64,000 nt of DNA. Source: a phage. The notes beneath the pieces are model-generated. The model ran no database searches, was not told the origin of the DNA, and worked only from the letters and a program-made list of their open reading frames with translations. The stretch lies in the sequence record PZ295659.1; one strand, given 5' to 3'. Shown here piece after piece: positions 37,856 through 48,420 of this stretch. A program made the position numbers and the translations under genes. The first letter of the stretch is position 1; the number at the start of each line of letters is the position of its first letter.

Positions 37856-39020
37856 CGAAATCTTCCATTTCGTCAAGGTCGTTTTCTATATCTGCTGCAG
37901 ACGGAGCATCAGAAGTTTTAACCGGAACTTTAGTTGTTGCTTTGCAATTAATAAGGTCGTTAACAGCGTCATCAACTTCTTTAATAGAAGAGATAGCACC
38001 TAGTTTATATTTAGTTTCAATTGCATCTCGGAAAGGTTTGTGTTTAAACAACGGTCCCCAGAATTCTACACAATCAGTAGCTTTAGCACGCCATGATTTT
38101 TCTTCACGAATCATTTCACCTGTTTCTTCGTCAAGGAATTCACGAGCATACCAACCAGCTTTAGGCTTAACTACAAAACCAATTTCAGTTGCCATTTCTA
38201 ACAAGCCACTGAATGGGTCAATACCACCATCAAAATTAACTGTGATCGGAAAAGTAGATTTCTCTTTAACCGTACGAGATTTTTCTGCTTTCAACGTGAA
38301 GTCATAACCGGTCAATTCTGTACCTTCTTTAACCTGACGTTTAGAGATAAAGAATACAGTGTTAGCAGAGTAAAGAATACCTGTACCACCACCCATAATC
38401 TCTTTAGGATACAATCCGCCAATTTCCATTGCGGTATGGTTAATTGCAACACACGGAATATCTTTAATAGTCAGATACGGGGTCACAATGCGGAACAGAG
38501 ATTTAAGTGCCTTAGCACGAGACATATCACCTACAACTTTCTCGTTCAATGCATCTTCGGTTTCTTTCTTAGATGCAGTATTACCGATTGAATCGATAAA
38601 GATAATAACTTTATCACCGCGTTCAATCGCGTCAAGCTGATTAGTCATATCAACTTTAAGTTGTTCGACAGATTGAATCGGAGTATGAACTACACGGTCT
38701 AAATCAACACCCATTGAACGAAAATAAGATTCTGAAGCACCAAATTCTGAATCATAGAACAAACAAATTGCATCTTTATATTTCTTCATATATGCTGCAA
38801 CCATGGTCAGACCAAACAACGTTTTAAAGTGTTTAGAAGGAGCAGCAAAAATAGTTAAGCCTGATTGCAACCCGGCATTCAGTGCACCACCTAATGCAAT
38901 ATTCAACATCGGAATACGAGTAGGGACTTCATCACGATTATTAAACAGCTTAGACTTAGTCAAGTCTGCAGTCATTTTAGAAGTAGAAGCTTTAATCAGA
39001 CGAGATTTTAAATCAGACAT
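37848..39020 (-). CDS. uvsX: Recombinase UvsX (RecA-like)
   Basis: 390 aa; MSDLKSRLIKASTSKMTADLTKSKLFNNRDEVPTRIPMLNIALGG...; matches remembered T4/RB69 UvsX. Confidence 0.9.
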   Translation of the reverse strand: MSDLKSRLIKASTSKMTADLTKSKLFNNRDEVPTRIPMLNIALGGALNAGLQSGLTIFAAPSKHFKTLFGLTMVAAYMKKYKDAICLFYDSEFGASESYFRSMGVDLDRVVHTPIQSVEQLKVDMTNQLDAIERGDKVIIFIDSIGNTASKKETEDALNEKVVGDMSRAKALKSLFRIVTPYLTIKDIPCVAINHTAMEIGGLYPKEIMGGGTGILYSANTVFFISKRQVKEGTELTGYDFTLKAEKSRTVKEKSTFPITVNFDGGIDPFSGLLEMATEIGFVVKPKAGWYAREFLDEETGEMIREEKSWRAKATDCVEFWGPLFKHKPFRDAIETKYKLGAISSIKEVDDAVNDLINCKATTKVPVKTSDAPSAADIENDLDEMEDFDE

Positions 39021-39120
39021 TGTATTTTTTCCATAGGCATCATTATATTTTACTCATGTTTAAAAGATAAGACGATTATATACTAAGGGTTATACAGCAT
39101 TTAAAACTTTAAACAGGCTC

Positions 39121-39669
39121 TTAACGAGCCCATTTGATAATTTCTGTAATCAAATTATTACGTTCGCTTGCATTAAATCCTATAACTTTGTTAGCACCAT
39201 CATGATTAAGTAATTGATACGTTTGGATTTCGTTATGAATTGCAAACTCTTCAAAATATGAAATGACTGTATTAAAACCGAACGAAGACAAAGTAATAAG
39301 GTCGTCTTCAAAACTTTCAGTCATTTCGTTACGTGTTAAAATAATTGTGAACACATCATGGTTTTGGCAAAGACGAACATAATCCTGTTCATAAACGTCA
39401 AGAACCGAGTCCGCATCTTGTCGAATACGTCCATAAACCCAGTTACTAATATATCCACGGTCTAACAGATAAATCTTAGTAGGGTCTAAATAATTCAACA
39501 TCGTTTCGAAACAGCCAACTTCATTTCGAGACTTAACATCGAAACGTCCATCAACTGTTCGTTTAGGGAAATCAATCTTTACATATCTTTCGCTAATTTC
39601 CATTATGTCATTAATGAAAGTTGTTTTACCAGCATTATCCGGGCCATCTACTAAAATAATTTTAGCCAT
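39121..39669 (-). CDS. P-loop NTPase, nucleoside/nucleotide kinase-like
   Basis: 182 aa; Walker A ILVDGPDNAGKTTF; no direct T4 counterpart at this position. Confidence 0.5.
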   Translation of the reverse strand: MAKIILVDGPDNAGKTTFINDIMEISERYVKIDFPKRTVDGRFDVKSRNEVGCFETMLNYLDPTKIYLLDRGYISNWVYGRIRQDADSVLDVYEQDYVRLCQNHDVFTIILTRNEMTESFEDDLITLSSFGFNTVISYFEEFAIHNEIQTYQLLNHDGANKVIGFNASERNNLITEIIKWAR

Positions 39670-39670
39670 T

Positions 39671-40570
39671 TTATTCCTCGATTACGACATCTTCATATTT
39701 AGGTATATTATACGGCGAAGAAATTAAAGCATTAAAGTAGATGAACTCACCAAGACCTGGATGGAATACTTCTTCAGGATTTTCGAAATATTGAATCTTC
39801 GGTCGTCCTTTAAGAATTTGATAGTACTCAGTTTTAGTTGGGTTAAAAATTCGAATCAGCGCTTCTTCAGGATACTTATTTCTGTCGAAGCTATTATTTG
39901 GATCGGTTATATAAAGCGGTTGGCCTAATTGAATTGCACATTCAACCACTTGTTCAAAACGATAACACGGGTCACTAATTCGAAATGGATGAAAAATACC
40001 ATCTAGATGAATAGGAGCCAAATCACCTACAAGACGCTGCATGATGGAAGGACGTATAACTTTCTGCGTTACGATAATCTTATTACCATCTGCACCTGCG
40101 TTAACCAGCACTTCTTTTTGACGTTCATTCAACACAGTAGTTTGAAGTGAACGATTAACCGACAACATGTCGGTTTTTAAGAATTCGTCAATATAAAAAC
40201 GTGGTTTATTAGGGTCCGCAGTGATATTGAAATTGAATTCCACATCAAAAGCGCCGTCATATCCAGTGATATCTGTGATTAGAAAATCACAATCATAATA
40301 AGCAATTAATGAATCAACCACAAATTCATTTTCAGACCAGAAATATTTACGAGTGTTATATGCGTTATCTTTATACCATAATGGAACAAACTTAAATTCT
40401 GGGAAAAGACGTTCACATTCTTTAATATCAGATGCATTACGTGGATATGTAATCACATCACCCGGATTAGCACGGTGCAAATGAAGTTGGAAGTTGCCAT
40501 CCTTAAGGATAGCATACTGTCCAGTTTCATAAGACCGCATACTCAAGATAGGTACGCGGAAAATAGCCAT
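39671..40570 (-). CDS. Protein of unknown function at the beta-glucosyltransferase locus; candidate DNA sugar transferase
   Basis: 299 aa between uvsX and gp42; no recognisable similarity to remembered T4 beta-gt; no motifs identified. Confidence 0.35.
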   Translation of the reverse strand: MAIFRVPILSMRSYETGQYAILKDGNFQLHLHRANPGDVITYPRNASDIKECERLFPEFKFVPLWYKDNAYNTRKYFWSENEFVVDSLIAYYDCDFLITDITGYDGAFDVEFNFNITADPNKPRFYIDEFLKTDMLSVNRSLQTTVLNERQKEVLVNAGADGNKIIVTQKVIRPSIMQRLVGDLAPIHLDGIFHPFRISDPCYRFEQVVECAIQLGQPLYITDPNNSFDRNKYPEEALIRIFNPTKTEYYQILKGRPKIQYFENPEEVFHPGLGEFIYFNALISSPYNIPKYEDVVIEE

Positions 40571-41286
40571 TAGTCAAGGAATCCTTTAACATAATCAAAA
40601 TCACGTTCAAACACATGGGCACTTACCATGGTATGAGTATAATCACCAACTTCTACACCACATTCGTTAGCGATATAATGAAGTAATTTTCCTTGGAGAT
40701 AAAAATCCAACTGCATAACAACAGCACAGTTCTGAGAACGCATATGACAGTGGGTATAAAGCTTACCATCACGAATATAATAAGTCACTGAGTCAGTACA
40801 TGGATATTCAAGTGTTTCGTCCGAATCAAGCAAAGCCTGATCTGAACTTTCTAGAATTTGGAACACAACTCTTCGGGAGTTAGGCTTCTCTTTAAGTTCT
40901 TTTAGAAGAGCTGGTAATTGAGCCGCAATGCGAGGACCGTAGAAAGTGTTGAAGTTTGCAGGCAAAGCGTCTGATTTAGGTTTAGAAATAAATTTAGCGA
41001 CATTAGGATATGCCTTAAATGCTTCTTCTGCATCAGTACCACCAGAAATCATAAACTTCCAGAAGTCTTCGGCATATTCATAAGAGATGCGATTAATACG
41101 TGGATCGGTCATTTTGAATGATGAAGGGGTATCAACAACTACTGTCATAGACCCAATTTCATTACAACGTCCAATACGAGAATCAGTAACGAACTGTGGA
41201 TTTTCTAAAATTTCACGATTAACAGCTTTAAATGCGGATTGAAAATCTGCGGCTTTAATATATTTCATTGTGTTATGTTTTCCCAT
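40570..41286 (-). CDS. 42: dCMP hydroxymethylase (thymidylate synthase family)
   Basis: 238 aa; PCTDSVTYYIRDGKLYTHCHMRSQN aligns with the T4 gp42 active-site region CTNTVQYLIRD; SD gaggt; N-terminus diverged from my recollection of T4. Confidence 0.65.
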   Translation of the reverse strand: MGKHNTMKYIKAADFQSAFKAVNREILENPQFVTDSRIGRCNEIGSMTVVVDTPSSFKMTDPRINRISYEYAEDFWKFMISGGTDAEEAFKAYPNVAKFISKPKSDALPANFNTFYGPRIAAQLPALLKELKEKPNSRRVVFQILESSDQALLDSDETLEYPCTDSVTYYIRDGKLYTHCHMRSQNCAVVMQLDFYLQGKLLHYIANECGVEVGDYTHTMVSAHVFERDFDYVKGFLD

Positions 41287-41304
41287 GTTTACCTCAATAC
41301 AGTT

Positions 41305-41328
41305 ATTATATACTCAATTCATAAAGCT
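41305..41328 (-). promoter_or_regulatory. Candidate MotA-dependent middle promoter for gene 42
   Basis: Minus-strand AGCTTTA (one mismatch to the TGCTTTA MotA box) 11 nt upstream of TATAAT. Confidence 0.35.
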
Positions 41329-41406
41329 TATTTGAATTTCTTAGCAATGTTGATATAACGTAAAGCTTCAGCATCGATACTTCCAAGAACACTATGAAGA
41401 AATGCA

Positions 41407-41568
41407 TCAGCGTAGTATTCTAGTTGAACAGGTTTCTTTAATCACTTTAGCCGCTTTAGTTTCAAACAGGCCCATAAGGGCCTTTTTAAGAATTTGTTCG
41501 TTGCTGTTAATTTTCGTAGTCAAAATCTCTTCATTAAGTTGGTGGTTAAAAGTTTTTCTAGAAATCAT
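41407..41568 (-). CDS. Possible small protein (53 aa) coupled by ATGA to the Cys-rich gene
   Basis: ATG overlaps the upstream TGA; region also contains a GGCCC/GGGCC hairpin, so coding status is uncertain. Confidence 0.3.
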   Translation of the reverse strand: MISRKTFNHQLNEEILTTKINSNEQILKKALMGLFETKAAKVIKETCSTRILR

Positions 41569-42725
41569 TCCGGGTACCTCAAAGCGTCGTCAGAGTTAGT
41601 TATATCAATAATAGATATAGAGTTTTCTGCTAACCCATTTTTAGATAACTGACGTTTATAATATCTTTCACAATATGTACACGTCGTCCCGCAGATTTCA
41701 TTAGCACAATCGAAATCTGGATGTCTGAACCACCTTTTTTCTAAAAAGCCATCTAACAAAGAGGTTTCAATATTTACCGTATGTGAAAACTCGGTCTCAT
41801 TTTCAAGAGTGAAAATAGTCTCTAAAGGCTTCCACAATTCCAACAAATTACCTTCAAATTTTTCAGAAGCATAAGCTTCAAGAACTTTCAAAATGTAGTC
41901 TGTGCTACCTGTACGTCCTGAAACTTTGAATTGAGTGATACCAATATCATTATAAAGTTTCAAATCTTGAGGACGAACAAAACGAGTTCTCAACCAGTTA
42001 AATGGGTCTGTATCACGAGCTTTAATACAGTGTTGCATTGGATAGCCATTTAAGGATTTGGCATCATCTACTGTAACGTCGGTGCTATGGAAAATATAGC
42101 AAGAGTCACGATAGCTACAATGTGTTGTATACCCTTTACCAGCATTAGAACAGAACTCATTTACAAGAACTTCAAATATTATATTGTTCTTATTGCAAAA
42201 CTCTGCTGCACGCTTCAGGAAAGAAACTGAACGGTTCTTATGAATTCCACAGCAGACCTTTTTGATATTATATTGGTCATGCAAGTATTTGATTTGAGTT
42301 ACAGCATCGACATGTAGAATTGTTGAAACTTCAATCTCAATGTCTTTATTAACTTCACGAACAATTTCCATAACAACAGGGTTAGCGATAGTAATACGCC
42401 ATACGCCTATTGACCAAAGATACTGAACATAATCCTGAATAGCTTTCTTCTTCCACTCAACTAGTTCTCTTTTTGAACCAGGATTTATCGTGTTGAGTGT
42501 ATAGTTAAAGCAAATACCTAATTCGTTACAACGTTTAACATAATCTTCTAACATCTTTTTGTCAACGTCAGGAAGCCTAAAATCAGGTCTGGCTGCTACA
42601 AAAGCCATTTCTCTTGTAGAGCCGTATACTTCATTTATCAAGCTATTAGGATAAGTTTTATTGAGCTCTACGATTTTATCAAGAAGAGCTAAATCAAAAT
42701 TCGTTCCGATTTTAAAAGTATTCAT
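41565..42725 (-). CDS. Cys-rich protein of unknown function, possible metal or Fe-S binding, in the sugar-nucleotide module
   Basis: 386 aa; C-terminal CANEICGTTCTYC (C-x4-C-x3-C-x2-C) plus further Cys pairs; weak resemblance to U32-type Cys-rich segments not confirmed. Confidence 0.5.
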   Translation of the reverse strand: MNTFKIGTNFDLALLDKIVELNKTYPNSLINEVYGSTREMAFVAARPDFRLPDVDKKMLEDYVKRCNELGICFNYTLNTINPGSKRELVEWKKKAIQDYVQYLWSIGVWRITIANPVVMEIVREVNKDIEIEVSTILHVDAVTQIKYLHDQYNIKKVCCGIHKNRSVSFLKRAAEFCNKNNIIFEVLVNEFCSNAGKGYTTHCSYRDSCYIFHSTDVTVDDAKSLNGYPMQHCIKARDTDPFNWLRTRFVRPQDLKLYNDIGITQFKVSGRTGSTDYILKVLEAYASEKFEGNLLELWKPLETIFTLENETEFSHTVNIETSLLDGFLEKRWFRHPDFDCANEICGTTCTYCERYYKRQLSKNGLAENSISIIDITNSDDALRYPE

Positions 42726-42779
42726 TTTTACATCTCGCGTTAATTGATGCGATGGTTTTTGCAGGTCTTACTTAAATTA

Positions 42780-43181
42780 TTATAGATTCGGTTTATATGA
42801 TTTAAATGTTTCGAATTCGCCTTTATTCATAAGAGCTTTGAATTCGTCAGGACGCATAGCTTTGTCGTCGATAATCCAATCATATACTGGTTTATGTGTT
42901 AGCAAATTATGGTACTTCAAGCCAATGTTTGCCAAGTTCTGAATCAGACTTGGGAGAATGTCAATTGCTATACGACCAGGACCTACTGACTTCATACCGC
43001 GAGCAGTGTAAAGCGTTATTGTATGCCCTGCATCATACAGGGCATTAATGGCAGACACCATTTCGACGTCTGGTTTGAAGTTCACGTAATCACGATTGTT
43101 ATTCCACTCGGTTATACAATCATCGACATCAAAACAAAGATTAAGCATGTTTTCTACACGGTGCATTAGATTCGTTCCCAT
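42780..43181 (-). CDS. HAD-superfamily phosphatase (small, capless)
   Basis: 133 aa; motif I-like FDVDDCIT, then LYTAR and KP...WIIDDKA; an alternative ATG at 43166 overlaps the upstream stop as TAATG. Confidence 0.55.
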   Translation of the reverse strand: MGTNLMHRVENMLNLCFDVDDCITEWNNNRDYVNFKPDVEMVSAINALYDAGHTITLYTARGMKSVGPGRIAIDILPSLIQNLANIGLKYHNLLTHKPVYDWIIDDKAMRPDEFKALMNKGEFETFKSYKPNL

Positions 43182-44851
43182 TGATGAGTGATATCGCCAC
43201 CGATTGGACGATAGGAAACACCAGTTTCTTTATCAGTTAGTACCCATTTACCAGGATTTTTTGTAATCAGAGTAGCCGTTACAGGTTCTGCTACGTCATA
43301 ACTAATAGAGCCGTCTTGAAGTACACGGCCCATGTTACGTAATTGCTTAGTCAGAAGTTCCATACCTTTATAATATGCGGCTACCGCTTTAAGTGGATTA
43401 TTCTTGAAATAACCACCTAATGCAATCCAGATAATTGCTACAGCCAAATGATGATACTCGTTAAACGAACTCATCTTTCCATATTTGTAAACTAATGGAT
43501 TGATGTTAATAGTCACATTACAAGTTGTTTCATCAATAGTAAACTGACCCCAGGTCGGATTAGCGTTGAATTCATCATAACCTGAAACAGCGTAAAGCAC
43601 TTTAGCTTCATCATACAATTTTGGCCCGTAAATCTTGGTTTCACCAAAATATCCACGAGGGTCGATAAACTTGACTTCACCATTATCAGTAATCATAGTA
43701 TTACTGAAGTTCGGGTCACCATGAATAACAGAGTACTGTCCCTGAGAACGGTTATGATAACGAATAAGGTGTTCTAAAGCTTGTTTCAACATTGGCTTCA
43801 GACGTCCAATCTTAGTGTAGTTCACATGTGTGATTTTACCAAATGAATCAATCAATGGTTGAATACTTTCACAACGATCAATAACTTTCGTATAGAATTC
43901 TTTAGTGAAATCACGACGAACAGTTTCAGGACTTACAAAATAAGTGTCTGTGCTGAATTTCAGTGCATCTAAAATTGCATCAACAATTTGTGGACGAGCA
44001 AGACTCGATTTGGATTTAATATATTCAAATGCCGGCTTACCTTTAATGCGTTCCATTTCAAAGTTATTTTCATTAACAGAAACTAACTGAGGAACTGAAT
44101 CTGATTTCACTTTAAGATACCATGAAATCTCATCTTTCTGAAGAGCTCGACCCTGTTCGGTTAATGCGAATTTAGTTACAGTTTCTTCACCAATTTCAAC
44201 TGCATTAAAACTACGATTAAGTTCACGAACTTCATGAGCTTTTTCAAGTTTAGGCATATCACCTAAATCAATTAGATTCATAAGCTCTGATTTATTGAAT
44301 GCGCTGCCGTAAAGGAATTCTACGAAATCACGCCCTTTGCAGTATTCATGAATTTCCTCATCAGTAGAACCCATATAGAATTCCCAGTCTTTGAACTGAT
44401 AAATTCCTACAACATTACCACCTGTTGAACCTACGTTAGTGATATTTTCACCGTCGAAATTATATCGACATTCGTCACCCTTAACATAGATTGCGTTAAC
44501 ATTCCAAGACCATGAACCAAAATCAGGAATAATATCGCACCAGTTAACAATTACATTATGGCTGTCTAAATCTTTGTGTAATTTAGCAAGAGCATAAGCA
44601 GAACCATACGCTTCATCAACTGTACGAATAGTCACATTGAACCCTTCTTGCTCACAATAAGCTCGAACAGTTTCAGCAAATTTTGAATGAACTACTACAA
44701 TAATTTCATCTGCGCCAAGGTCAGAATAAATTGTATACAAATTGCTCAGAATAGTGTCTTGTTTATAGTTAACAAGCACCTTAGGAATATGATGCGTTAT
44801 TGGATACAAACGAGTTGCCAGTCCAGCACCAAGAATAACAGCTTTTTTCAT
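43166..44851 (-). CDS. Bifunctional sugar-1-phosphate nucleotidyltransferase / APH-fold sugar kinase fusion
   Basis: 561 aa; N-terminal AVILGAGLATRLYP (RmlA-type G-x-G-T-R-L), C-terminal VIHGDPNFSNTMI...FIDPRG (Brenner and D-x-x-G motifs of choline/aminoglycoside kinase fold). Confidence 0.65.
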   Translation of the reverse strand: MKKAVILGAGLATRLYPITHHIPKVLVNYKQDTILSNLYTIYSDLGADEIIVVVHSKFAETVRAYCEQEGFNVTIRTVDEAYGSAYALAKLHKDLDSHNVIVNWCDIIPDFGSWSWNVNAIYVKGDECRYNFDGENITNVGSTGGNVVGIYQFKDWEFYMGSTDEEIHEYCKGRDFVEFLYGSAFNKSELMNLIDLGDMPKLEKAHEVRELNRSFNAVEIGEETVTKFALTEQGRALQKDEISWYLKVKSDSVPQLVSVNENNFEMERIKGKPAFEYIKSKSSLARPQIVDAILDALKFSTDTYFVSPETVRRDFTKEFYTKVIDRCESIQPLIDSFGKITHVNYTKIGRLKPMLKQALEHLIRYHNRSQGQYSVIHGDPNFSNTMITDNGEVKFIDPRGYFGETKIYGPKLYDEAKVLYAVSGYDEFNANPTWGQFTIDETTCNVTININPLVYKYGKMSSFNEYHHLAVAIIWIALGGYFKNNPLKAVAAYYKGMELLTKQLRNMGRVLQDGSISYDVAEPVTATLITKNPGKWVLTDKETGVSYRPIGGDITHQWERI

Positions 44852-44892
44852 GTTGTGGTCCTCATTGGTAAGTAGGAGTATTGTACACTATT

Positions 44893-45036
44893 CTAGTTAA
44901 AGCATTCATACTTTGCTTGTAGTCCAATCATAATCCATCCGATTACAAGTGTTGGAATCATTACTGGAGCCGTTAAGCTCCAGTAGATAGTCATGACAAG
45001 CATCAATAGTAAAAGTCCTATTGTTATTGCTTTCAT
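44893..45036 (-). CDS. Small hydrophobic peptide (47 aa) coupled by ATGA to the isomerase gene
   Basis: MKAITIGLLLLMLVMTIYWSLTAPVMIPTLVIGWIMIGL...; ATG overlaps the TGA of the SIS gene. Confidence 0.4.
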   Translation of the reverse strand: MKAITIGLLLLMLVMTIYWSLTAPVMIPTLVIGWIMIGLQAKYECFN

Positions 45037-45668
45037 TGTTCGCCTCGTAACATGGCACCTAGTGCACCGCCAGGGTGGAACTTAAGGAAGTCATTAGAGG
45101 TAAATCCACGTTCAGACGAAAGGTTGATAGCAAACGTATCGATAAGCGCTAACAACAATGTAGTGGACATGGTCGGAGCCAGAGAATTCTCATCAACCTC
45201 TACTGCGATGCCTGTACAGAACGTATAATCAAAAAGAGCTTCATATTCTTGTGGAATGTCTGGGTTACAATGCAACAGAATCTGTTTGACGTTCGGACGA
45301 ATCATTTTAAGATGCTTAGCCACGCCTATCATTTCTTCAGTTTTACCAGAACGACTAATATGAATCAACACATCATTAGGCGCAATGAATCCTGCATCAC
45401 CGTGAGAATAATGCCCGGTGTTCAAGTACATACTAGGGATACCGAGTGAAGCAAATGTTTCAGAAGCTTTAGTTGCAATATTAGCATTCTTACCAACACC
45501 TGTAATAATTACTCGGCTTTCATAATTACTAAGCCCTGGGCGTCGAAGAGTTTCTAGAATAGCATTATAACGAGCAGGGTTTTGACTAATTACTTTGGCC
45601 ATAGCGGCCAAAGAAGAAGCTTGTTTTATGATTGCGTCAATAGCGATAGTAATAGGAGTAGTTTTCAT
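45033..45668 (-). CDS. SIS-domain sugar-phosphate isomerase, KdsD/GutQ-like (arabinose-5-phosphate isomerase type) without CBS domains
   Basis: 211 aa; ITGVGKNANIATKASETFASLGIPSMYLNTGHYSHGDAGFIAPNDVLIHISRSGKT parallels the KdsD SIS core GMGKSGHIG...HGDLG...ISNSGES. Confidence 0.7.
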   Translation of the reverse strand: MKTTPITIAIDAIIKQASSLAAMAKVISQNPARYNAILETLRRPGLSNYESRVIITGVGKNANIATKASETFASLGIPSMYLNTGHYSHGDAGFIAPNDVLIHISRSGKTEEMIGVAKHLKMIRPNVKQILLHCNPDIPQEYEALFDYTFCTGIAVEVDENSLAPTMSTTLLLALIDTFAINLSSERGFTSNDFLKFHPGGALGAMLRGEQ

Positions 45669-45708
45669 ATTTCTCTCATTTAATTAGTTTACCGTCCATG
45701 ACATTATA

Positions 45709-48420
45709 TCAAAAATCGAACATATCGAAAAGAGATGCTTTCTTCTCGTAATCGAGTTTCGCTGCTGATGTGAATCCTTCAAGTGGTTTAATAAATGTCT
45801 TCTCAAGGAGAACAGTGTAGTCCATCCAATGAAGTACGTCGTCTTTAATTAAATCTGTGATTTCAGTACCAGAAGGCCATGCGATACATTTATCACCGAA
45901 TGGGTTTCCTTCACGTAAAGGCAGAACATATACTTTTTCACCTTCTACAACTTGCGGTGCATCGATATTACCTTTGATGGCCCGGTTATATGTCAGAATT
46001 CCACGAATATGGAACGGACATTTAGGACCAGGGAATCCACCTACGTCATATTTAGCGATGTTATTCGCAGAAGATACCGACGCGATGCTAATATAATTCA
46101 ATTGACGGAATTCTTTTTCAAACTCTTTAAAATATTCTTGTAATGATTCTTCACCTTCTTGAAGCATACGACGAATACATTCTTTAAGAGCTTTCTGTAC
46201 GGCTTTAGGAGTCGAAGATTTCTGCGTCTCTAGACCCATGATTTTGAGTTTAGGCTCAGCGTAACGAGTACCTTCCATATCCCACACGTTTAATGCATAA
46301 CGTTTCTTACCAGTCCAGAATCCACCAATACCTTTAGAACCAAGTGGAGGCCCAGCGATAGCTTCTCGGTCCATGAACATTAAGTGTTGTTTATTGTTCA
46401 TGTATTCACACATTTCACGGAAACCTCTATCAATAGCTGGTTCCATACGTTCACGTGCAAACTTATCTAAGAAGTCTACCCAGTGGTTGGTATCACGGAA
46501 TTTAGATTCACCAACCTTATCGATAATTTTATCAGCAGATACGTAAATAGAGTCTGTATCACCATAAAGAACGAAAGCTTCACCTTCTGTACCACAAACT
46601 TCGTTCAGATATTCATTAACTTTACGTTCAATCCACTGTAAAGCCATTTGCCCAAATGTTGTGATTGCAGTAGCATTACGCAAATCATAATAACGGAACC
46701 AAACGTTGCCAAGTGCACCATAAAGTGAGTTGATAAGCAATTTACGGTTAATTTGAGCAGTCATACCTGCAACTTCGGTACGTTGAGCTCTAAACAACAT
46801 TTCATTAAGAGATTTAGCAGACAACTTTTTAATCTTTTCTTTAATCTCATCACTGAAGTCGAAACGATAATCAACATCTAATGGTTCGTCAACAGAAAGA
46901 TTAGGATTATGCAATGCCTCTTTAATTATTTCACCGTTACGTTGAGCTGCAAGCATGTAACCTTTATGTTCTTTACGTTGATTAAAGACCTTAGTGATTT
47001 CAGTTGGAACTACACCATCACGGTCTTTATAATACATCATGCCGTTAGGAGAGCAACTGTACACATCTGAAGGACGTTCAGCAACAGCGTTAATATAATC
47101 ATGCAATGGAGCTACTTTAAACGTTCCTGCTATTGTTTCCGGGCTAATATTCACTTGGCGAATAATACTTGGATACAGAGATGTAAGGTCGAAACTCATT
47201 ACATATTTGTATCGATTTGGAATAGGTTCCTTAACAAAAGCACCAGGATAAGGTTGAACCGGGTGAGAACGACCTTGTGGAATCACCTTGTTCTGCTCTT
47301 TAAGGCTATTAAAAATAATAGCATCCCATGTTTTAATTGGGCTAAACACAGATTGAATCTGTATCTTAGCATAATAACCCATGTCCAAACTCAAGTTGAT
47401 GAACTGACGCTTAGCATCAATTTGCAATACACGATACACGTCGATAATGTTATAAGAAATATATCGTTGGTGATTGCTTTCACGAAGCTTAGAAATAGGG
47501 CCGTCATATTTCAGTTTACCAACGTTCAATTCAAATTCTGAAATGTAATCCAGAGAATATGACGGCTGATTGGTAAAAGAGAATTTTTTGTAAAGGTCAA
47601 TGTAATCAAGAACAGAGATACCGAACAATGTAATGATTTCACGAGAACCATACATGTTTTCGATAACTTTAACACGAGTTTTACGATGTGGTGATAAACG
47701 TTTCGCAGTAGATTCGCCAAAAATATTCTTGATTCGGTTATACACATATGGAATATCAAATGACTCAACGTTCCATCCAGTCAAAATGACAGGAGTTTTC
47801 TGTTGCCAGAAGTTGAGATATTCCATCAACAATTCTTTTTCGTTATCGAACGGCATATAAATGATTTTATCGATAATTTCGGATGGAACTTCATCACCGC
47901 CTTGTTCTTGAAGCTTGGCCGCAATTTCGATAGACCATTCTTCTACATTACCATATGGAGAATTCAATAGATCAAATACGTAGAACCTGTCGTCAATTGA
48001 GTCATAATGGGTGATAGCATCAATCGGATGTTTTGCTTGTGACGGCTCAGGGAACCCATCCGGGGATGTTACTTCGATGTCGAAGTTAGCCACACGAATT
48101 TTTGTATGGTCGTATTTGATTTCATAGTTATAAGTGTCAGACAAATACGCCAATTTGAAATCGTCCATGCCAAGTGCTTCAAGTCCGATATCTTCCATGC
48201 GTTTAATCCATTGGGAGGCATCACGCATATTGGCGAACAACTTACGAGTACACGGCTTACCATAGATATCAAAATATTTCGTGGCCTGACTTTCAGGACA
48301 ATGTGCAAACAATGATGGTTTATACTCTACTTCACGAGTACGTTCACGGCCGTTAGAATCGATGTAACGTTCAAAAATTGAATCACCAATCTGTTCAACC
48401 GTTAAGTAAAATTCTTTCAT
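45709..48420 (-). CDS. 43: DNA polymerase gp43 (family B), RB69-type
   Basis: 903 aa; MKEFYLTVEQIGDSIFERYIDSNGRERTREVEYKPSLF... matches my recollection of RB69 gp43; exonuclease and polymerase motifs (YGDTDS) present. Confidence 0.95.
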   Translation of the reverse strand: MKEFYLTVEQIGDSIFERYIDSNGRERTREVEYKPSLFAHCPESQATKYFDIYGKPCTRKLFANMRDASQWIKRMEDIGLEALGMDDFKLAYLSDTYNYEIKYDHTKIRVANFDIEVTSPDGFPEPSQAKHPIDAITHYDSIDDRFYVFDLLNSPYGNVEEWSIEIAAKLQEQGGDEVPSEIIDKIIYMPFDNEKELLMEYLNFWQQKTPVILTGWNVESFDIPYVYNRIKNIFGESTAKRLSPHRKTRVKVIENMYGSREIITLFGISVLDYIDLYKKFSFTNQPSYSLDYISEFELNVGKLKYDGPISKLRESNHQRYISYNIIDVYRVLQIDAKRQFINLSLDMGYYAKIQIQSVFSPIKTWDAIIFNSLKEQNKVIPQGRSHPVQPYPGAFVKEPIPNRYKYVMSFDLTSLYPSIIRQVNISPETIAGTFKVAPLHDYINAVAERPSDVYSCSPNGMMYYKDRDGVVPTEITKVFNQRKEHKGYMLAAQRNGEIIKEALHNPNLSVDEPLDVDYRFDFSDEIKEKIKKLSAKSLNEMLFRAQRTEVAGMTAQINRKLLINSLYGALGNVWFRYYDLRNATAITTFGQMALQWIERKVNEYLNEVCGTEGEAFVLYGDTDSIYVSADKIIDKVGESKFRDTNHWVDFLDKFARERMEPAIDRGFREMCEYMNNKQHLMFMDREAIAGPPLGSKGIGGFWTGKKRYALNVWDMEGTRYAEPKLKIMGLETQKSSTPKAVQKALKECIRRMLQEGEESLQEYFKEFEKEFRQLNYISIASVSSANNIAKYDVGGFPGPKCPFHIRGILTYNRAIKGNIDAPQVVEGEKVYVLPLREGNPFGDKCIAWPSGTEITDLIKDDVLHWMDYTVLLEKTFIKPLEGFTSAAKLDYEKKASLFDMFDF

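Follow-up and report, generated by a model that had tools for sequence, protein, structure and literature searches.

Arabinose was found in the DNA of phage RB69 by Thomas 2018 (PMC6024577), where ORF053c and ORF052c were recognised as one gene of 561 residues and where this gene and ORF055c were proposed as the genes for uridine diphosphate (UDP)-arabinose. The RB69 sugar has since been reported to be ether-linked to 5-hydroxycytosine with no hydroxymethyl group in between (Lee 2026, PMC13326640), and in a 2026 paper the earlier assignment of the base as 5-hydroxymethylcytosine (hmC) was called erroneous. According to Lee 2026, the ThyA homologue gp48 of RB69 makes 5-hydroxy-deoxycytidine monophosphate (5-hydroxy-dCMP), the oxygen originating from O2 in 18O2 labelling and flavin being bound to the enzyme, and the Acinetobacter phage DLP3 makes a tri-arabinosylated base. 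The route proposed there for the sugar donor leads from ribulose-5-phosphate to arabinose-5-phosphate (gp55), arabinose-1,5-bisphosphate (C-terminal domain of gp52:53), arabinose-1-phosphate (gp51) and finally UDP-arabinofuranose (N-terminal domain of gp52:53). For the sugar steps Lee 2026 cites Mahler 2025 and the biochemistry of He 2026 on AfhE and AfhF of phage HY126, both AfhE activities, with uridine triphosphate (UTP) as the nucleotide donor, being reported for HY126 in the account given there. Here we describe the homologous region in a 64,000-nucleotide stretch of phage DNA (record PZ295659.1), hereafter the window, whose source is an RB69-like Mosigvirus with relatives among the Escherichia phages. 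The UDP-arabinose pathway of its three sugar genes is already published, and only a gene for a U32-family protein (42725..41565, minus strand) is left outside that account.

We consider it moderately probable that the cluster as a whole replaces cytosine with arabinosylated 5-hydroxycytosine, and that the U32 protein serves its base branch as an O2-independent hydroxylase. In the sugar branch, a SIS-domain protein would divert ribulose-5-phosphate to D-arabinose-5-phosphate, the C-terminal kinase of a fusion enzyme would phosphorylate C1 to give arabinose-1,5-bisphosphate, a HAD-type phosphatase would take off the 5-phosphate, and the N-terminal nucleotidyltransferase of the fusion enzyme would join the resulting arabinose-1-phosphate with UTP into UDP-arabinofuranose, from which the adjoining glycosyltransferase would put arabinose onto 5-hydroxycytosine in DNA. 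In the base branch, the ThyA homologue would make 5-hydroxy-dCMP with flavin and O2, and the U32 protein would be an iron-sulphur, prephenate-dependent, O2-independent 5-hydroxylase of a cytosine deoxynucleotide, for use when O2 is short. Such a pair would parallel UbiI/H/F and UbiU/V, as well as TrhO and TrhP. All cytosines are replaced, and the known hydroxylase depends on O2, which the hosts mostly lack where they live; by our reasoning, a phage that shuts unmodified cytosine out of its DNA and depends on such a hydroxylase would stall in an anoxic host.

The region at 41565-45668 had been singled out, from sequence alone, as a module of four co-directional and tightly coupled genes. All four open reading frames (ORFs) are indeed found there on the minus strand, flanked on one side by the gp43 family-B DNA polymerase gene (48420..45709, minus strand) and on the other by a ThyA-fold gene (41286..40570, minus strand). 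In the direction of reading these are the SIS isomerase (45668..45033; 211 aa, homologue of RB69 ORF055c/gp55), the nucleotidyltransferase-kinase fusion (44851..43166; 561 aa, homologue of RB69 ORF053_052c or gp52:53 and AfhE-like), the HAD-type phosphatase (43181..42780; 133 aa from the first ATG, homologue of AfhF and RB69 gp51) and the U32-family protein (386 aa, homologue of RB69 ORF050c). The tight coupling holds for the most part, since the start of the phosphatase gene overlaps the stop of the fusion gene (TAATG, or 16 nt if the upstream ATG is used), but a gap of 54 nt separates the phosphatase and U32 genes and two small ORFs had been overlooked. The likely start of the phosphatase is M6 at 43166, as annotated in relatives, which gives 128 aa. 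The window proteins are at least 99% identical to RB69 ORF055c, ORF053c+052c, ORF051c and ORF050c, and Escherichia phage PHB12 matches the 5-kb stretch at 98.7% identity. By megablast, 153 phage records, mostly of Mosigvirus, contain 80% or more of this stretch, which argues that the arrangement is not due to chance. Base composition over the stretch is nothing unusual. Two genes are broken up in the GenBank entry of RB69 (ORF053c/052c and ORF047c/046c); in the window each is one uninterrupted ORF, of 561 and 299 aa, in agreement with the published view that the splits are sequencing errors.

The profile searches that had been suggested as a check placed three of the four proteins in the families claimed for them. 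The first had been called a KdsD/GutQ-like isomerase, and its SIS domain matched Pfam at E 1.7e-10, with the quoted strings GVGKNANIA (residues 57-65) and HISRSGKT (residues 103-110) both present. In BLASTP it shares 36% identity over 192 aa with Escherichia coli KdsD (E 2e-33), with the GxGK, HGD, LAPTxSTT and HPGGALG segments all kept, and its PDB matches were 3etn, 5uqi and 2xhz (E 5.5e-25 to 6.5e-19). The alignment stops at residue 202 of the 328 of KdsD, as the phage protein is without the C-terminal tandem CBS domains of KdsD and GutQ; the missing CBS pair accounts for the NCBIfam matches to KpsF/GutQ (E 2e-32) and KdsD (E 1e-30) both being under the cut-off, and the protein resembles the SIS-only isomerases 3etn and 5uqi. 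The conversion of ribulose-5-phosphate to arabinose-5-phosphate was assigned to gp55 from structure models (Lee 2026), and by homology the window protein is a predicted D-arabinose-5-phosphate isomerase. In Klebsiella phage CP-p-KP-21072 (L006) and in JS10 (L018) the fusion enzyme and the phosphatase are kept with no SIS isomerase gene nearby; these phages presumably obtain arabinose-5-phosphate through KdsD or GutQ of the host.

The N-terminal domain of the fusion protein matched Pfam NTP_transferase (E 7.3e-10, residues 3-100), with the GxGxRL-type loop GAGLATRL at residues 8-15, and LicC (1jyk) in PDB at E 1.7e-5. The assignment of the C-terminal domain as an APH-fold kinase is borne out by the HxDxxxxN-type catalytic loop HGDPNFSN (residues 377-384), followed by FIDPRG (residues 395-400), and by a profile search in which APH(2'') structures 3uzr and 3ham came on top with a marginal E of 0.005-0.01; Pfam matches to Fructosamin_kin, RIO1 and EcKL were weak and under the cut-off. 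HGDxxxSN is kept in 36 out of 42 fusion homologues, a set that includes near-duplicate loci. The fusion is 99.7% identical to its RB69 counterpart over 343 aligned aa. The C-terminal domain is predicted to be an APH/protein-kinase-like kinase and the N-terminal domain a sugar-1-phosphate nucleotidyltransferase. The third protein is a small HAD phosphatase, as first proposed: it is near-identical to PDB 9iqw (E 7.8e-88), matches 1xpj at E 5e-10 and carries the N-terminal DxD-type motif FDVDDC at residues 17-22. No Pfam match was obtained for it, and the NCBIfam model TIGR01689 ('capsule biosynthesis phosphatase') was matched at E 4e-13, under the model cut-off.

The original prediction had reasoned, by the logic of ADP-heptose synthesis, that these enzymes lead from ribulose-5-phosphate to nucleotide-activated arabinose. 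As this is the pathway given by Lee 2026 (PMC13326640), its core idea is correct and already known; a reading of the sequence alone had recovered the right chemistry for three genes, and the finding is a rediscovery of a published pathway. In the published order the kinase precedes the phosphatase and not the reverse. For the window itself the sugar branch is inferred by homology, the AfhE and AfhF activities having been shown by others on near-identical proteins. Two candidate transferases had been noted nearby. One, at 39671..40570 (minus strand), is a glycosyltransferase (phrog_3891, E 1.5e-155; homologue of RB69 gp46:47) and a candidate for DNA arabinosyltransferase 1, but the other, at 39121..39669 (minus strand), is a thymidylate-kinase-like nucleotide kinase (phrog_761, thymidylate kinase, E 5e-45; homologue of RB69 gp45). 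Assignments for both RB69 proteins are given in Table 1 of Lee 2026.

The neighbouring ThyA-fold gene had been taken for gp42, the dCMP hydroxymethylase, which did not hold. N169/D177 in E. coli ThyA numbering is the signature of 5-hydroxy-dCMP synthases (Lee 2026), and in an alignment with E. coli ThyA the window protein has N at 169 and D at 177. The pattern of T4 gp42-type dCMP hydroxymethylases is D169 together with D177, of which D177 is present and residue 169 is N. The protein is near-identical to PDB 9iqc, 9ir2 and 9iqu (E 6e-163). By these residues and this homology, the product of 41286..40570, a homologue of RB69 gp48, is no dCMP hydroxymethylase but a 5-hydroxy-dCMP synthase that depends on O2 and flavin. 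The predicted sink of the sugar, glycosylation of hmC in phage DNA, stands in that the sugar ends on a modified cytosine in DNA, but the base is 5-hydroxycytosine; for the same reason the statement that RB69-type phages carry arabinosylated hmC was right about the arabinose only.

The fourth, 386-aa protein falls into Peptidase_U32 (PF01136; E 6.3e-11, 42.4 bits against a gathering cut-off of 22.4). Its only NCBIfam match was UbiU (E 5e-4), and a sequence search against PDB gave no match at E < 1. An AlphaFold2 model with a mean confidence (pLDDT) of 88.9 had the U32 protein 5d88 as its top Foldseek match in PDB (E 2e-7), followed by generic TIM barrels. The described UbiU/V, RlhA and TrhP act in O2-independent hydroxylation that needs prephenate; RlhA and TrhP act at the C5 of pyrimidines, RlhA making ho5C2501 in 23S rRNA and TrhP ho5U34 in tRNA, and for UbiU/V prephenate is the demonstrated source of the oxygen. 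The best E. coli paralogue of the phage U32 family profile in hhalign was RlhA, the results for UbiU, TrhP and UbiV being weak or nil. Ten cysteines (C158, C177, C192, C203, C209, C233, C340, C345, C349 and C352) are invariant among 21 aligned members of the family, the most distant of them at 48% identity, with C340-C352 forming a C-terminal CX4CX3CX2C cluster. C203 and C209 (CX5C) align with C169/C176 of UbiU, C170/C177 of TrhP and C169/C176 of RlhA; in UbiU, C169 and C176 are 4Fe-4S ligands with experimental support, in the motif CX6CX15CX3/4C (PMC6747719). The FKVSGR segment aligns with the (V/L/F)KIEGR motif of the E. coli paralogues.

In tblastn searches the U32 protein was found in 222 phage records, in all of them at 80% identity or more. 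Acinetobacter is missing from the ten commonest host names among these records, the smallest count there being 3. The fusion gene occurs in 57 Acinetobacter phage records, at least 55 of which are without U32. Acinetobacter is strictly aerobic. In DLP3 as well as in the E. coli Dhakavirus JS10, the phosphatase gene is followed directly by the hydroxylase gene. Since DLP3, with its tri-arabinosylated DNA, and JS10 have no U32 gene, U32 is dispensable for the sugar pathway, and the inclusion of the Cys-rich 386-aa protein in a four-enzyme sugar module turned out to be unnecessary. No other protein of the cluster is as well conserved between genera as U32, whose identity is 79-87%, compared with 42-73% in the fusion enzyme and 46-69% in the glycosyltransferase.

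What remains of interest in the locus is the U32 gene and its conserved association with genes of prephenate supply. Enterobacter phage Entb_45 has, across the U32 stop, a gene annotated as chorismate mutase whose score exceeds the Pfam CM_2 cut-off, and U32 is immediately followed by a chorismate mutase gene of significant Pfam score also in a Klebsiella phage, Serratia phage CHI14, Yersinia phage TG1 and Shewanella phage Thanatos-2. Among the T4-like loci of IMG/VR this arrangement was seen in 13 out of 15. Such genes in named phages (L001:7158-7397, L006:7158-7403, L007:7134-7391, L008:7158-7502 and L009:7378-7671) encode mini chorismate mutases of 79-114 aa with CM_2 scores of 33-45 bits, mostly annotated as hypothetical, and belong to Kanagawavirus, Klebsiella, Shewanella, Winklervirus and Tegunavirus phages. 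Phage chorismate mutase was found in 51 records, every host genus of which also has U32-encoding phages; the annotations beneath these matches read ThyA homologue or U32 'peptidase'.

Metagenomes commonly contain U32 homologues, with identities of 40-58%. A scan of IMG/VR yielded 47 loci, and a local census was made with hidden Markov models (HMMs), representatives being checked with Pfam; the 36 divergent loci of the census include several near-duplicates, and each covers only about 20 kb. All distant homologues examined lie in phage-like contigs, beside genes of nucleotide metabolism or replication, such as those for dCMP deaminase, UDG-PolIII-alpha, thymidylate kinase, dUTPase, NT5C, deoxynucleoside kinase and nucleoside deoxyribosyltransferase. 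Chorismate mutase, DAHP synthase or their fusion adjoins U32 in 12 of the 36 divergent loci, in three distinct architectures; the two enzymes were counted together because the iterated HMMs merged, some phages fusing both domains. The fused DAHP synthase-chorismate mutase lies just upstream of U32 (L049:8411-9433, and also L050, L052 and L053) with both Pfam domains significant, and a stand-alone DAHP synthase just downstream of it in L015 and L037. One contig has the order glycosyltransferase, SIS isomerase, fusion enzyme, U32 and DAHP synthase, the last matching its NCBIfam model at E 3e-70, against 3e-17 for KDO8P synthase. Phages appear to carry the entry and exit enzymes of the shikimate pathway beside the U32 gene. 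The glycosyltransferase family of 39671-40570 is found near U32 in 24/36 divergent loci, seven loci being bare triads of kinase, glycosyltransferase and U32 without sugar genes. Within 10 kb of U32 a ThyA-fold gene was seen in only 1 of the 36, and it keeps the canonical D169/N177.

Because its neighbours are genes of nucleotide metabolism and prephenate supply, and because DLP3 and JS10 do without it, U32 more likely belongs to the base-hydroxylation branch than to the sugar branch, where it would possibly provide an O2-independent hydroxylation route. As such an enzyme, U32 would be redundant with the ThyA homologue in RB69-type phages and would replace it in many uncultured ones. We propose tentatively, and with less assurance than the joint reading given above, that these proteins form a phage subfamily of prephenate-dependent, O2-independent deoxycytidine-nucleotide hydroxylases, fed in many phages by a chorismate mutase or DAHP synthase of their own; they would be a backup to the ThyA-type hydroxylase when RB69-type phages infect in anoxic habitats, and the sole route to O-glycosylated hydroxypyrimidine DNA in many uncultured phages. 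The literature searched, with He 2026 and Mahler 2025 outside its reach, contained no report linking U32, chorismate mutase and phage 5-hydroxycytosine.

Several observations weigh against this proposal. RlhA is matched only weakly (hhalign probability 73%, E 3e-5), and only two of the four canonical iron-sulphur cysteines align in the U32 protein; ligands three and four do not, the other invariant cysteines numbering eight. No chorismate mutase gene was found in the whole 64-kb window (all E > 0.1), and Mosigviruses in general, this one included, have an unrelated small ORF in the slot, so their prephenate would have to come from host PheA and TyrA. Dhakaviruses such as JS10 infect E. coli without U32, and approximately 45 Escherichia or Enterobacteria phage records have the fusion gene without it, from which it follows that a facultatively anaerobic host does not require U32. 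As the divergent loci cover only about 20 kb each, the remainder of these contigs could still encode a hydroxylase of the ThyA type, and several of the loci are near-duplicates. Finally, Table 1 of Lee 2026 (PMC13326640) labels RB69p050 only as 'sugar or heterocycle reductase', without discussion.

That label, were it taken at its first word, would make U32 an accessory enzyme of the sugar branch, either a reductase or an enzyme tailoring the pentose or the poly-arabinose chain. The position of the U32 gene between the phosphatase and hydroxylase genes is in line with this, as is the presence near U32 of the fusion enzyme in 17/36 and of the SIS isomerase in 10/36 divergent loci. We nevertheless regard such a role as unlikely. 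The seven triads of kinase, glycosyltransferase and U32 have no arabinose genes, and neither have the loci linked to dCMP deaminase. In Thanatos-2 the U32-chorismate mutase pair adjoins a recombinase gene, away from the fusion gene and the other sugar genes. No U32 member is described as a sugar enzyme in the literature examined, and pentose chemistry offers no reason for the association with chorismate mutase and DAHP synthase.

Equally doubtful is a function of U32, with or without chorismate mutase, outside DNA modification, be it hydroxylation of tRNA or rRNA in the manner of TrhP and RlhA to tune translation, or true peptidase activity. The characterised U32 enzymes of pyrimidine C5 do act on RNA, RlhA is the best E. 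coli match, and databases annotate the protein as 'peptidase' or 'collagenase'. However, U32 persistently adjoins genes for ThyA-type hydroxylase, thymidylate-kinase-like protein, dCMP deaminase, dUTPase, NT5C/deoxynucleoside kinase and DNA glycosyltransferase, and such neighbourhoods span unrelated phage lineages. With 386 aa against 653 in RlhA and 453 in TrhP, the phage protein is also without the extra domains of these two enzymes, and no peptidase activity has been tied to the phage subfamily. The idea that all four proteins form one nucleoside diphosphate-arabinose pathway, with dephosphorylation before anomeric phosphorylation and hmC from a gp42 hydroxymethylase as the target, has adjacency and co-orientation of the genes, three fitting family assignments and the arabinose of RB69 DNA in its favour, yet it is highly improbable, being already contradicted on the base (5-hydroxycytosine, made by a ThyA homologue that is a hydroxylase), by the published order of kinase and phosphatase, by the tri-arabinosylated base that DLP3 makes without U32 and by U32 homologues that have no arabinose genes nearby.

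Apart from the genes above, the cluster contains two small ORFs. The first (45036..44893, minus strand; 47 aa) occupies the slot of RB69 ORF054c, its start overlaps the stop codon of the SIS gene, and it is annotated as a 144-nt coding sequence in PHB12, ST0 and 348Ecol098PP. It is strongly hydrophobic, its sequence beginning MKAITIGLLLLMLVMTIYWSL, and it is probably a small membrane protein. Imm homology was considered for it and rejected, as the best Pfam match reached only E 2.8 and 8 bits; an Imm superinfection-immunity gene lies nearby in the related phages JS10 and Thanatos-2. The second (41568..41407, minus strand; 53 aa), whose start overlaps the U32 stop, is a shortened homologue of RB69 ORF049c and belongs to phrog_8601, which is without assigned function. 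One extra A relative to RB69 shifts its frame, giving 53 aa against 79 aa in RB69 (L002:7158-7397). The records of PHB12, JS09 and 348Ecol098PP likewise give the gene 53 aa, and that of ST0 gives it 47 aa. As gp051 of Yersinia phage TG1 favours the longer RB69 frame, ORF049c appears to be decaying in JS09-like Mosigviruses. The ORF fills the slot held by the chorismate mutase gene in other genera, and a diverged chorismate mutase was considered for both RB69 ORF049c and the window homologue; this was rejected, there being no Pfam match, a different PHROG, and in TG1 both an ORF049c family member and a chorismate mutase. Over 39000-45800, sigma-70 promoter-like sites showed no excess (22, with 25.3 expected from shuffled sequence), and terminator-like sites a slight one (6, with 3.4 ± 1.7 expected from shuffles) that is too small in number to be used.

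Some of the metagenomic loci deserve mention in their own right. The triads of thymidylate-kinase-like gene, phrog_3891-type glycosyltransferase gene and U32 (L016, L040, L044, L045, L051, L054 and L065) lie on contigs of mostly 40-49 kb, begin about 1.5 kb before U32 and end with it; neither arabinose genes nor a ThyA homologue were present in the approximately 20 kb seen. The triad could mark an undescribed O-glycosylated hydroxypyrimidine modification of DNA. In L046 the kinase and the glycosyltransferase are fused in one ORF of 605 aa. L004:8001-14360 looks like a nucleoside-modifying island, in which a pair of U32 paralogues is accompanied by genes for NT5C, a deoxynucleoside kinase, a PnuC-like transporter, a protein of the radical SAM/SPASM type and one resembling nucleoside deoxyribosyltransferase; its flanks are bacterial-looking (dockerin/GH43, Glu-Cys ligase). 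A radical SAM/SPASM gene is nearby in L003 too.

If the proposed role of U32 is true, an O2-independent hydroxylase would explain phage replication in the gut, and the chemistry of prephenate as oxygen donor would extend from RNA and quinones to DNA precursors. The combination of U32, kinase and glycosyltransferase would then be a marker for hydroxypyrimidine-glycosylated genomes among uncultured phages. Furthermore, the state of modification might then depend on oxygen, which would bear on phage therapy and on the evasion of restriction and CRISPR.

Of the known systems, the arabinosyl-5-hydroxycytosine (Afh) cluster of RB69, HY126 and DLP3 has the same genes in the same order, with proteins at least 99% identical to those of RB69. 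The three sugar genes of the window differ from it in nothing of substance, the differences being the truncated ORF049c and the intact state of the genes split in RB69. Synthesis of ADP-heptose by GmhA, HldE and GmhB shares the four-step logic of isomerase, kinase, HAD phosphatase and nucleotidyltransferase, with kinase and transferase fused, but the phage substrate is a pentose, the carrier is UDP and the domain order is transferase, then kinase. The kinase of HldE has a ribokinase-like fold, whereas that of the phage has an APH/protein-kinase-like one. The same two folds activate a small molecule in series in AmgK-MurU and LicA-LicC, and LicC (1jyk) and MurU are the best solved relatives of the N-terminal domain; those are separate proteins acting on free N-acetylmuramic acid or choline, whereas the phage has both domains in one protein, with a sugar 5-phosphate as the reported substrate of the kinase in the account cited above. 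With RlhA, TrhP and UbiU/UbiV the phage U32 protein has in common the U32 domain, the TIM barrel, the CX5-6C pair and the (F/V/L)K(V/I)(S/E)GR motif. The C5 hydroxylation of cytosine by RlhA is the chemistry needed from phage U32, for which the link to prephenate is genomic; the phage proteins differ as a separate subfamily with an extra C-terminal CX4CX3CX2C and a deoxynucleotide as the proposed substrate. Lastly, the glucosylation of hmC in T4, by gp42 dCMP hydroxymethylase and the alpha- and beta-glucosyltransferases, has the same genome position and strategy, a ThyA-fold enzyme modifying dCMP before replication and the sugar being added on DNA. In contrast to T4, which uses host UDP-glucose, the RB69-type cluster has hydroxylation in place of hydroxymethylation, an ether at C5 and a donor made by the phage itself.

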